Below, in pieces: positions 11,717 through 44,521 of a stretch of 64,000 bases of DNA. The notes beneath the pieces are model-generated. The model made no database searches, was not told the origin of the DNA, and worked only from the letters and a program-made list of their open reading frames with translations. Location: NCBI RefSeq assembly GCF_003018255.1, contig NZ_CP027440.1. One strand, given 5' to 3'. The translations under genes and the position numbers were made by a program. Positions within the stretch are counted from its first letter, which is position 1; each line of letters opens with the position of its first letter. Source of the stretch: Escherichia coli (lineage in GTDB: Bacteria; Pseudomonadota; Gammaproteobacteria; Enterobacterales; Enterobacteriaceae).

Positions 11717-11732
11717 CTTGAATGGTTTCAGC
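11717..11732. promoter_or_regulatory. Cra (FruR)-like operator TGAATGGTTTCA downstream of the candidate pykF -10
   Basis: Match to Cra half-site pattern TGAA-N4-TTCA; pykF is a known Cra-repressed gene. Confidence 0.45.
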
Positions 11733-11937: not shown

Positions 11938-13350
11938 ATGAAAAAGACCAAAATTGTTTGCACCATCGGACCGAAAACCGAATCTGAAGAGATGTTAGCT
12001 AAAATGCTGGACGCTGGCATGAACGTTATGCGTCTGAACTTCTCTCATGGTGACTATGCAGAACACGGTCAGCGCATTCAGAATCTGCGCAACGTGATGA
12101 GCAAAACTGGTAAAACCGCCGCTATCCTGCTTGATACCAAAGGTCCGGAAATCCGCACCATGAAACTGGAAGGCGGTAACGACGTTTCTCTGAAAGCGGG
12201 TCAGACCTTTACTTTCACCACTGATAAATCTGTTATCGGCAACAGCGAAATGGTTGCGGTAACGTATGAAGGTTTCACTACTGACCTGTCTGTTGGCAAC
12301 ACCGTACTGGTTGACGATGGTCTCATCGGTATGGAAGTTACCGCCATTGAAGGTAACAAAGTTATCTGTAAAGTGCTGAACAACGGCGACCTGGGTGAAA
12401 ACAAAGGTGTGAACCTGCCTGGCGTTTCCATTGCCCTGCCAGCACTGGCTGAAAAAGACAAACAGGACCTGATCTTTGGTTGCGAACAAGGCGTAGACTT
12501 TGTTGCTGCTTCCTTTATTCGTAAGCGTTCTGACGTTATCGAAATCCGTGAGCACCTGAAAGCGCACGGCGGCGAAAACATCCACATCATCTCCAAAATC
12601 GAAAACCAGGAAGGCCTCAACAACTTCGACGAAATCCTCGAAGCCTCTGACGGCATCATGGTTGCGCGTGGCGACCTGGGTGTAGAAATCCCGGTAGAAG
12701 AAGTTATCTTCGCCCAGAAGATGATGATCGAAAAATGTATCCGTGCACGTAAAGTCGTTATCACTGCGACCCAGATGCTGGATTCCATGATTAAAAACCC
12801 ACGCCCGACTCGCGCAGAAGCCGGTGACGTTGCAAACGCCATCCTCGACGGTACTGACGCAGTGATGCTGTCTGGTGAATCCGCAAAAGGTAAATACCCG
12901 CTGGAAGCGGTTTCTATCATGGCGACCATCTGCGAACGTACCGACCGCGTGATGAACAGCCGTCTCGAGTTCAACAATGACAACCGTAAACTGCGCATTA
13001 CCGAAGCGGTATGCCGTGGTGCCGTTGAAACTGCTGAAAAACTGGATGCCCCGCTGATCGTGGTTGCTACCCAGGGCGGTAAATCTGCTCGCGCAGTACG
13101 TAAATACTTCCCGGATGCCACCATCCTGGCACTGACCACCAACGAAAAAACGGCTCATCAGTTGGTACTGAGCAAAGGCGTTGTGCCGCAGCTGGTTAAA
13201 GAGATCACTTCTACTGATGATTTCTACCGTCTGGGTAAAGAACTGGCTCTGCAGAGCGGTCTGGCACACAAAGGTGACGTCGTAGTTATGGTTTCTGGTG
13301 CACTGGTACCGAGCGGCACTACTAACACCGCATCTGTTCACGTCCTGTAA
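11938..13350 (+). CDS. pykF: Pyruvate kinase I, 470 aa
   Basis: Track ORF starts at 11722, but the ATG at 11938 gives the pyruvate kinase N-terminus [19 protein letters not shown]. Confidence 0.95.
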
Positions 13351-40943: not shown

Positions 40944-40980
40944 AACCCGGCGACAAAACGCCGCCGGGGATTTATTTTAT
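40944..40980. terminator. Terminator between convergent fadK and ppsA
   Basis: Stem cccggcg/cgccggg followed by gatttattttatttc; the T tract overlaps the ppsA stop. Confidence 0.55.
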
Positions 40981-43355
40981 TTCTTCAGTTCAGCCAGGCT
41001 TAACCAGGTTTGCACCACGGTATCCGGGTTCAGAGACAGGCTATCGATCCCCTCTTCCATCAACCATGCGGCAAAGTCTTCGTGGTCGGACGGACCCTGA
41101 CCGCAAATCCCGACATATTTGCCCTGTTTCTTCGCGGCACGAATCGCCATCGACAGCAGTGCTTTCACCGCATCGTTGCGCTCATCGAACAGTTCAGACA
41201 CCACTCCGGAGTCACGGTCCAGACCGAGCGCCAGCTGTGTCATGTCGTTTGAGCCAATTGAGAAGCCGTCGAAATATTCGAGGAACTGCTCTGCCAGCAA
41301 GGCGTTGGACGGAATTTCACACATCATGATGATTTTCAGCCCGTTCTCACCACGTTTCAGCCCCTGACGCGCCAGTTCCTCAACCACCGCTTTCGCCTGA
41401 TCTACGGTACGCACGAACGGGATCATGATCTCAACGTTGGTCAGCCCCATGTCGTTGCGCACACGTTTCACTGCTTCACACTCCAGCGCGAAGCAGTCGC
41501 GGAAGCTGTCGGAAACATAGCGGCCCGCGCCACGGAAGCCGAGCATCGGGTTCTCTTCATCTGGCTCGTAACGCTCACCACCGACCAGGTTGGCATATTC
41601 GTTCGATTTAAAATCAGAGAGACGGACAATGACGCGCTTCGGATAAAACGCGGCACCCAGCGTCGCGATCCCTTCAGTCAGACGCCCAACGTAAAATTCA
41701 CGCGGAGAATCAAAACCTTTCATCATCTCGCGGATTTCGTTTTGCAACTGCGGTTCCTGATCGTCAAACTCAAGCAGTGCGCGTGGGTGGACGCCAATCA
41801 TACGGTTGATGATAAATTCCAGACGCGCAAGGCCGACGCCTTCGTTCGGCAGGCAGGCGAAGTCGAAAGCACGGTCCGGGTTACCGACGTTCATCATCAC
41901 CTTCAACGGCAGATCAGGCATCGTTTCTACGCTGGAGCTTTTCACGCTAAATTCCAGCAACTCCGCATAGACGTAACCGGTATCACCTTCGGCACAAGAA
42001 ACAGTGACGTTCTCACCGTCTTTCATCCGTTCTGTTGCATCACCACAGCCCACTACCGCCGGAATGCCGAGTTCACGAGCGATGATCGCCGCGTGACAGG
42101 TACGACCGCCACGGTTGGTGACGATGGCAGATGCTTTCTTCATGATCGGTTCCCAGTCCGGGTCGGTCATGTCAGTGACCAGCACGTCTCCAGGTTCGAT
42201 GCGGTTCATTTCGCTGATGTCATGGATGACTTTCACCGGACCCGCACCGATGCGATGACCGATAGCACGGCCTTCGGCGATAATCTTACCCTGTGAATGC
42301 AGCGTATAACGCTCCATGACCTGACCGCGTGAGCGCACGGTTTCCGGACGCGCCTGCACAATGAACAGTTTACCGGTGTGGCCATCTTTCGCCCACTCAA
42401 TATCCATTGGGCGACCGTAGTGTTTCTCAATTTGTACGGCCTGTTTTGCCAGTTCCTGCACTTCTTCGTTGGTCAGCGAGAAGATGTCACGCTGTTCTTG
42501 CGGTACGTCCTCGATTTTAACCTGCTTGCCGTGCTCCTGGGTCGGCGCGTAAACCATGCGGATTTTTTTCGACCCCATGGTGCGGCGCACGATAGCCGGG
42601 CGATTCGCCGCCAGTGTCGGTTTGTGCACGTAAAACTCATCCGGGTTAACCGCACCCTGCACGACCATTTCACCAAGGCCCCATGCGGAAGTGATAAACA
42701 CCACCTGGTCAAAGCCGGATTCGGTATCAATGGAGAACATCACGCCAGAAGATGCGAGGTCGGAGCGCACCATCCGCTGAACACCGGCGGACAGCGCCAC
42801 GCCACGGTGATCGTAACCCTGGTGCACACGATAAGAGATGGCGCGATCGTTAAACAGAGAAGCAAATACATGTTTCACAGCCACGAGAACGGCGTCAAAA
42901 CCCTGAACGTTGAGGAAAGTTTCCTGCTGACCGGCAAAAGAAGCGTCCGGCATATCTTCTGCAGTAGCGGAGGAACGCACCGCAAACGAGGCGTTTTCGT
43001 CATCGGCGGAAAGCTGTGCATAGGCTTCGCGGATGGCGTTTTCCAGCTCAGGCTGGAAGGGAGTGTCGATAATCCACTGGCGGATTTGCGCGCCCGCTTT
43101 CGCAAGCTGGGTAACATCGTCAATATCCGTTTTATCCAGCAGTTCATAAATGCGCTGGTTTACGCCGCTTTGGTCCAGAAACTGGTTAAACGCGTCGGCG
43201 GTTGTGGCGAAACCATTCGGAACGGAAACACCCATTCCGGAAAGGTTAGTAATCATTTCACCCAGGGAGGCATTTTTGCCCCCAACCCTGTCTACATCAT
43301 TCATGCCGAGTTGGTTATACCAAAGCACCAGCGGTGACGAGCCATTGTTGGACAT
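40977..43355 (-). CDS. ppsA: Phosphoenolpyruvate synthase, 792 aa
   Basis: Pyruvate,water dikinase sequence recognised; full-length ORF. Confidence 0.95.
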
Positions 43356-43442
43356 CGAACAATCCTTTTGTGATAAATGAACGGTTTGAGAAACACATTT
43401 CTGCGCATTTATCTTTGCATATTTAACCGGATGAAAAAAACG

Positions 43443-43457
43443 GTGAATCGTTCAAGC
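43443..43457. promoter_or_regulatory. Cra (FruR)-like box GTGAATCGTTCAAGC upstream of ppsA
   Basis: Match to the TGAA-N4-TTCA pattern about 90 nt upstream of the ppsA ATG; ppsA is known to be Cra-activated. Confidence 0.45.
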
Positions 43458-43687
43458 AAATATATTTTTTTACTTTTTAAGACTGATCCCAGCGTTGCGC
43501 AAATCTGCTCTCTTCGACAATTTCCACATAAACCATCGGTATAAACGAAACCGTAAAAATGAAATGCTGTTTTCATAAAAAATAAAATTGAAGGTTCATT
43601 TTATAAACCAGACATAACGTTCTACGCTTCTGTGCGTTTTTAATTTATGCTTTCATAGAATTATGTCTGCATCACGGGAAGAACAAA

Positions 43688-44521
43688 ATGGATAATGCTG
43701 TTGATCGCCACGTTTTTTATATTTCTGATGGTACGGCAATAACTGCGGAGGTATTAGGACACGCAGTAATGTCACAATTTCCCGTCACTATCAGCAGCAT
43801 TACGCTGCCGTTTGTCGAAAATGAGAGCCGTGCACGGGCAGTGAAGGATCAGATTGACGCAATTTATCACCAGACAGGTGTGCGCCCGCTGGTCTTCTAC
43901 TCCATCGTGTTGCCGGAGATTCGCGCCATCATCTTGCAAAGTGAGGGCTTTTGCCAGGATATCGTTCAGGCGCTGGTTGCCCCGCTACAACAAGAGATGA
44001 AACTGGATCCAACGCCGATTGCTCATCGTACCCATGGCCTTAACCCTAATAATCTCAATAAATATGATGCGCGCATTGCTGCGATTGATTACACCCTCGC
44101 CCACGATGATGGCATTTCGTTACGCAATCTGGACCAGGCTCAGGTGATCCTGCTCGGCGTTTCTCGCTGTGGTAAAACCCCCACCAGTCTGTATCTGGCA
44201 ATGCAGTTTGGTATCCGCGCGGCAAACTACCCCTTTATTGCCGACGATATGGATAATCTTGTGCTACCCGCGTCGCTCAAACCGCTTCAGCATAAATTGT
44301 TCGGCCTGACTATCGACCCGGAACGTCTGGCGGCGATTCGCGAGGAACGTCGGGAGAACAGTCGCTATGCCTCGCTTCGTCAGTGCAGGATGGAAGTCGC
44401 GGAAGTGGAAGCGTTGTACCGTAAAAATCAGATCCCGTGGATTAACAGTACCAATTATTCGGTAGAAGAGATTGCCACCAAGATCCTCGATATCATGGGC
44501 CTTAGCCGTCGAATGTACTAG
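43688..44521 (+). CDS. ppsR: PEP synthase regulatory protein (bifunctional kinase / pyrophosphorylase), 277 aa
   Basis: P-loop GVSRCGKT; divergent from ppsA. Confidence 0.9.

Follow-up and report, generated by a model that had tools for sequence, protein, structure and literature searches.

Among the systems described so far, the closest one is the Cra (FruR) operator of the E. coli ppsA promoter itself (Ramseier et al. 1993/1995; Negre et al. 1998, J Mol Biol 276:355). The locus analyzed here is that same locus, its box is identical to that of MG1655 and nothing in it differs. Other Cra promoters, either repressed (pykF, pfkA, fruBKA) or activated (fbp, pck, aceBAK, icd), share with it the LacI/GalR-type operator, the central CG and the TGAAWC half-site. 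Compared with them, the ppsA box has a degenerate right half-site (GTTCAAGC, or GTGTAAGC in 26 of 79 genomes) and adjoins a promoter whose -35 is weak and whose -10 is extended. Cra sites located upstream of a promoter activate, whereas overlapping or downstream sites repress, and ppsA is among the Cra-activated gluconeogenic genes found by ChIP-exo/RNA-seq (PMC5888115) as well as in transcriptome studies. In addition, a ppsA promoter-GFP fusion showed a 16-fold induction on acetate relative to glucose, in a work that compared it with a Cra-independent control, whose Cra site was scrambled, and with a delta-cra strain (PMC5555440). CsrA, CsrC and ArcZ have also been implicated in ppsA expression, and binding of ArcZ in the region between ppsR and ppsA was detected by RIL-seq. 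As a textbook point of control, the Cra-ppsA switch helps to decide which way carbon flows at the PEP-pyruvate node, and it has been used as a biosensor of glycolytic flux.

The ppsA-ppsR spacer and its Cra operator

The window, that is, the whole stretch of 64,000 nucleotides that was analyzed, belongs to the E. coli chromosome: of 5426 complete E. coli genomes, 5136 carry a 732-nt stretch around the locus with an identity of 99% or more and the annotation ppsA / ppsR, and the ppsA annotation is present in more than 5420 E. coli genomes. The ppsA CDS (40977-43355, minus strand, 792 aa) is an open reading frame for phosphoenolpyruvate synthase (NCBIfam NF005057 and TIGR01418, E=0), and the ppsR (ydiA) CDS (43688-44521, plus strand, 277 aa) is one for the PEP synthetase regulatory kinase/phosphorylase (NF049928, E = 2e-129). 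The pair is preceded by fadK and followed by aroH. A previous reading of this DNA made from the letters alone (hereafter, the sequence-only reading) had described ppsA and ppsR as divergent genes separated by a 332-bp spacer (43356-43687); the ORF listing and the NCBIfam matches agree exactly with these names, orientations and limits. The spacer differs from that of MG1655 by a single SNP at 43553 (G here, A in MG1655) and has no indels, hence the MG1655 coordinates transfer by a constant offset, the window position being the NC_000913.2 position minus 1741781 or the NC_000913.3 position minus 1743757. The SNP falls just upstream of the first of the two KdgR-type boxes described below, in a poorly conserved column and outside every conserved element.

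For the comparison across the family we used 80 PpsR loci from Enterobacteriaceae, with one genome per species, from which 78 ppsA-ppsR spacers were extracted and an alignment of 79 sequences was built. Spacer length is 327-341 bp in most of the 78 genomes, with a median pairwise identity to E. coli of only 62%. Enlarged spacers occur in Intestinirhabdus (575 bp), Buttiauxella sp. B2 (451 bp) and Siccibacter (392 bp), which suggests insertions. We found that no other 16-column window of the spacer is as conserved as the Cra region AAAAACGGTGAATCGT, which reaches 0.976 against a spacer mean of 0.72 and an average of about 0.55 in the columns that flank the box. Within it, GTGAATCG is nearly invariant, as are the left half-site and the central CG, and the right half-site reads TTCAAGC in about 51 of the 79 sequences and TGTAAGC in 26. 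At the species level, 5363 of the 5420 E. coli genomes that hold the box show no difference in the 35 nt around it.

The sequence-only reading had recognized in GTGAATCGTTCAAGC, which occurs only once in the 64-kb window (43443-43457), a match to a Cra half-site pattern. The Cra site stands, and it is more than a half-site. The 16-mer GGTGAATCGTTCAAGC (43442-43457, either strand), which contains GTGAATCGTTCAAGC, agrees with the asymmetric Cra consensus RSTGAAWCSNTHHW at every position, and is supported as an operator by this match, by its conservation and by its published position. In the same way, all the positions of GGTGAATCGTTCAA (43442-43455) fit RSTGAAWC.SNTHHW, which we take to be the asymmetric Cra consensus attributed to Ramseier 1995. 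The comparison with the 16-bp palindromic motif gcTGAAtCGaTTCAgc quoted in PMC5888115 gives 12 identities out of 16: no mismatch falls in the left half or the central CG, and the right half is degenerate. The box is, in this sense, a complete asymmetric operator. The sequence-only reading is correct and concerns a control region that is already known and well studied.

The ppsA promoter, the position of the Cra box and the leader

The ppsA transcription start site (TSS) was mapped on the minus strand at 1785185 of NC_000913.2, with 420 reads and a 49-nt leader (Kim et al. 2012, PLoS Genet, Table S1, PMC3415461). In the window this start is the minus-strand G at 43404, a column that is invariant in the 79 spacers, and the upstream sequence printed for it is the exact reverse complement of 43404-43454. 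The centre of the Cra box (43449.5, between C43449 and G43450) lies exactly at -45.5 from this start. The passage of PMC7897506 that cites Negre et al. 1998 describes the E. coli FruR operator at ppsA as "centered at -45.5", and FruR as a class I activator that depends on the alpha C-terminal domain of RNA polymerase and on correct helical phasing. The position of the box relative to the mapped start equals that of the published operator, and two independent sources thus agree to the base on -45.5. The proposal of the sequence-only reading that the box is placed to activate ppsA is borne out, as the position found is upstream of the mapped start, coincides with the one published for activation and is compatible with it. 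Textbook class I activator sites are usually located at -61.5 or further upstream. A centre at -45.5 is unusual for such an activator, and for the contact geometry we rely on the cited passage of PMC7897506.

From the TSS and the conservation profile we infer that the ppsA -10 is the extended element TGcAAAGAT (43411-43419, minus strand), with the TG at -15/-14 and the hexamer at -12 to -7. The TG (43419-43418), A-11 (43415), T-7 (43411) and the G of the TSS are invariant in the 79 spacers. This assignment is ambiguous given an overlapping hexamer of better appearance, GATAAA/ATAAAT (TATAAA in many genera), which ends only 3 nt before the mapped TSS and is not preferred as the -10 because it sits too near to it. 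The hexamer at the -35 position is TTTTTT (43434-43439, minus strand), which matches TTGACA in 2 of 6 bases. Such a pairing of a weak -35 with an extended -10 is in keeping with the published description of a basal transcription that an adjacent activator boosts (PMC7897506). Further upstream, from -56 to -74, the conservation profile reveals a moderately conserved A/T tract (43460-43478, either strand) that, upstream of bound Cra, is possibly contacted by the alpha C-terminal domain of RNA polymerase or serves as a segment that can bend.

The 49-nt ppsA 5' leader defined by the mapped start (43356-43404, minus strand) carries the Shine-Dalgarno (SD) sequence AAGGA at 43367-43363, and its 3' part (43357-43375) is highly conserved (0.91). 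The fold of the leader shows no significant structure (z = +1.67, less stable than the shuffles), and no RNA family was matched by an Rfam scan of 43200-43800 at E <= 1; both results rule out a riboswitch-like or attenuator element. A perfect 8-bp inverted repeat, GATAAATG / CATTTATC (43372-43379 and 43406-43413), brackets the ppsA TSS, and it is not an RNA hairpin because only one of its arms is transcribed. The promoter scan also returned a TTGAGA-18-TATCTT match (43386-43415, plus strand), which was discarded for its wrong strand and its location within the ppsA leader/promoter. With respect to small ORFs, the one that starts at the only ATG of the leader (43397, minus strand) is out of frame, lacks an SD sequence and is not conserved. 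The MG1655 RefSeq annotation contains no CDS within the spacer. A small protein "pssL" is said to be expressed from the ppsA 5' UTR (PMC9426594), a statement that probably arises from a mix-up between pssA and ppsA.

The ppsR promoter and the KdgR-type boxes

How ppsR is transcribed from this region had been considered unclear in the sequence-only reading, a question that the existing TSS data and the conservation profile largely answer. Two starts were mapped for ppsR at 1785439 (8 reads) and 1785444 (7 reads) of NC_000913.2 (Kim et al. 2012, Table S1, PMC3415461). In the window they correspond to 43658 and 43663 on the plus strand, with leaders of 30 and 25 nt before the ATG; both are weak and come from one study. 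They lie behind a -10 conserved across the family: the ppsR core promoter block TTTAATTTATGCTTTCA (43639-43655, plus strand, conservation 0.94) is the second most conserved 16-column window of the spacer and contains TATGCT (43646-43651), at -12 to -7 from the start at 43658, with an invariant A at 43647 (-11). No -35 could be recognized, the region where it is due being neither conserved nor consensus-like. Thus, ppsR is served by a weak promoter of its own that carries a conserved -10 and lacks a -35.

Two further conserved elements are found upstream of this promoter. The known KdgR operators of genes for hexuronate/pectin catabolism (kduI, kdgT, kdgK, eda) consist of a 19-bp palindrome, and close matches to it are found here. 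Box 1, AATGAAATGCTGTTTTCAT (43558-43576, either strand), is a KdgR-type (IclR-family) box that matches in 17 of 19 positions AATRAAAYRNYRTTTYATT, which we take to be the 19-bp palindromic KdgR consensus. Its centre is at -91 from the ppsR TSS and at -163 from the ppsA TSS. When AATRAAAYRNYRTTTYATT was scored upstream of genes of MG1655 that are known KdgR targets according to PMC6958661, it gave 19 and 17 of 19 for kduI, 18 for kdgT and 17 for kdgK, the last being equal to box 1. In the 64 kb, box 1 is the sole match to AATRAAAYRNYRTTTYATT with two mismatches or fewer, against 0.15 expected by chance per window. Box 2, AATAAAATTGAAGGTTCATT (about 43581-43600, either strand), is centred near -67 relative to the ppsR TSS and near -187 relative to that of ppsA; it is degenerate in E. 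coli and matches 16-19 of 19 positions in most other genera, reaching a perfect 19/19 in Pluralibacter (AATAAAACGATGTTTCATT). Nearly all the orthologous spacers (about 78 genomes) hold both boxes at matching positions of the alignment, and box 1 fits best in most genera as a 20-bp version, 1 bp over the canonical length. The columns 43554-43603 follow the pattern AAAAATGAAA, 5-6 variable bases and TTTCAT for the first box, and AAAAATAAAA, variable bases and TTTCATTTT for the second one. Conservation of the left half, the centre and the right half is 0.89/0.54/0.85 in box 1 and 0.90/0.60/0.90 in box 2. This is the signature of a palindrome bound by a dimer, as the half-sites are kept (0.85-0.90) while the centres vary (0.54-0.60).

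In Erwinia chrysanthemi, ppsA and ydiA are reportedly under positive control by KdgR, and a regulation of this kind fits the present arrangement since the boxes sit upstream of the ppsR promoter. This differs from classical KdgR repression, as the boxes (-67 and -91) are not placed over the mapped promoter. Both ppsA and ydiA (now ppsR) are listed as KdgR targets by comparative genomics (Rodionov et al. 2004) and cited as KdgR-regulated in Dickeya. The literature searched contained no test of KdgR at ppsA-ppsR in E. coli. Judging from the boxes and their conservation, the tandem sites most likely bind KdgR, which would link the divergent pair to the availability of hexuronate/KDG; as regards occupancy in E. 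coli and the gene under control, we infer both. Chances seem to us evenly balanced that these candidate boxes are functional in E. coli, in which case they would be upstream activating sites for the ppsR promoter that lacks a -35, perhaps with a long-range effect on ppsA, and would wire PpsR to hexuronate/KDG through KdgR (or PlaR) in parallel to Cra.

A different interpretation is that the 43554-43603 block is not a KdgR site, and that it binds the related IclR-family regulator PlaR (YiaJ) or constitutes a second, distal ppsR promoter; we regard this as possible, albeit rather doubtful. The PlaR box ATnTGAAACnnnGTTCAnTT resembles the KdgR box and both regulators have targets in common, whereas ppsA and ppsR are not mentioned among the PlaR gSELEX targets (PMC6958661). 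As for a distal promoter, the scan gives ATGAAA-18-TAAAAT at 43559-43588 (-35 ATGAAA at 43559-64, -10 TAAAAT at 43583-88), and if it were real the two boxes would cover its -35 and its -10/+1, in the manner of a classical repressor site. However, Kim et al. 2012 report no TSS near 43595, the scan yielded 2 promoter-like sites against 1.5 expected, and conserved half-sites with variable centres are what dimer binding leaves, unlike a -35/-10 pair. The same scan missed both experimentally supported promoters, because these are non-consensus. The citation of ppsA and ydiA as KdgR-regulated also argues against this interpretation. The distal promoter ranks as a minor alternative.

Other assignments of the 43559-43576 palindrome made by eye, namely a TyrR box, a CRP site, a YpdB repeat (GGCATTTCAT), a TorR box and an IclR box, were rejected because of a misfit in the spacing or in the bases key to contact, and also because the E. 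coli-specific GCATTTCAT lacks conservation across the spacers. An 8-codon ORF beginning with ATGAAATGC at 43559 was rejected as well, as it has no SD sequence and conservation follows the arms of the palindrome, without codon periodicity.

Reach of the Cra operator and control of the divergent pair

The spacer is common to both genes, and the product of ppsR regulates PpsA, so that co-regulation would be physiologically sensible. It could then be proposed that one Cra operator serves the two divergent genes, and that ppsR as well as ppsA is activated or repressed from it. We consider this improbable. The centre of the box lies 208.5 bp upstream of the mapped ppsR start at 43658, far beyond the usual range of direct action, ppsR possesses a conserved promoter block and upstream boxes of its own, and no report of Cra control of ppsR was found in the literature searched. 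At this distance of about 208 bp from the ppsR starts, the Cra operator probably has no direct action on ppsR.

The pattern match alone is weak evidence and is not significant: the 14-mer Cra consensus has 3 matches in 64 kb against 0.63 expected, a count equalled in 5 of 100 shuffles, and its 12-mer core has 7 matches against 2.8 expected. It is conservation and position that raise the box above chance. Consequently, a chance match with no regulatory role, which the frequency of the degenerate consensus and the 4 mismatches to the perfect 16-bp palindrome GCTGAATCGATTCAGC would favour (the box is not picked up at three mismatches or fewer), can be dismissed for practical purposes, as the box is the most conserved segment of the spacer in the 79 sequences, is nearly invariant across 5420 E. 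coli genomes, sits exactly at the published -45.5 position and has published in vivo functional evidence for Cra at ppsA.

Taken as a whole, with the ppsR promoter and the KdgR-type boxes included, the region is best explained by a box that is the Cra (FruR) operator for ppsA in E. coli, which we hold to be almost certain. The identities of the genes, the place of the box, the mapped starts, the conservation and the activation by Cra are established here or in the cited papers, and the following sequence of events is proposed. The effector of Cra is a sugar phosphate, fructose 1-phosphate by published accounts. At low glycolytic flux, Cra would be free of its sugar-phosphate effector and would bind GGTGAATCGTTCAAGC at -45.5. 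There, the bound protein would adjoin the poor -35 (TTTTTT) and the extended -10 and would help RNA polymerase to start at 43404, giving a ppsA mRNA with a 49-nt leader. At high flux, Cra would leave the DNA and ppsA would drop to its basal level. In turn, ppsR is weakly transcribed from its own promoter, starting 30 and 25 nt before the ATG, with the two conserved IclR-type boxes at about -67 and -91 upstream of that promoter and KdgR as their most likely binder.

The recovery of the Cra box shows that a scan of the sequence can find real operators, and adds nothing new to what was known of it. As a by-product, a map of the divergent region at base resolution was obtained, which comprises the Cra operator, the extended -10 promoter, the ppsR core promoter and the two KdgR-type boxes, and which bears on the regulation of ppsR, the kinase/phosphorylase that switches PpsA on and off. 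The sole lead that may retain some novelty is whether the two conserved KdgR-type boxes exert control over ppsR, ppsA or both in E. coli.

Genomic SELEX has also assigned a PdhR box, AGTTGGTTATACCAAAG, to the "ppsA/ppsR" spacer (Anzai et al. 2020, PMC7660256, Table 1). Its unique exact match in the window (43309-43325, either strand; about +80 to +96 from the ppsA TSS) is, however, inside ppsA codons ~11-16 and not in the spacer, and its conservation is inseparable from coding constraint. In a pdhR mutant the ppsA mRNA was down more than 2-fold, and the gel shift appeared as a smear (PMC7660256).

Finally, two more full matches to the Cra consensus are present in the window, both on the minus strand: GCTGAAACCATTCA (11719-11732), about 210 bp upstream of pykF (about 11938-13350), and AGTGAAACCTTCAT (12266-12279), within the pykF CDS. 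As pykF is the Cra-repressed counterpart of ppsA, the window holds both arms of the PEP-pyruvate switch.
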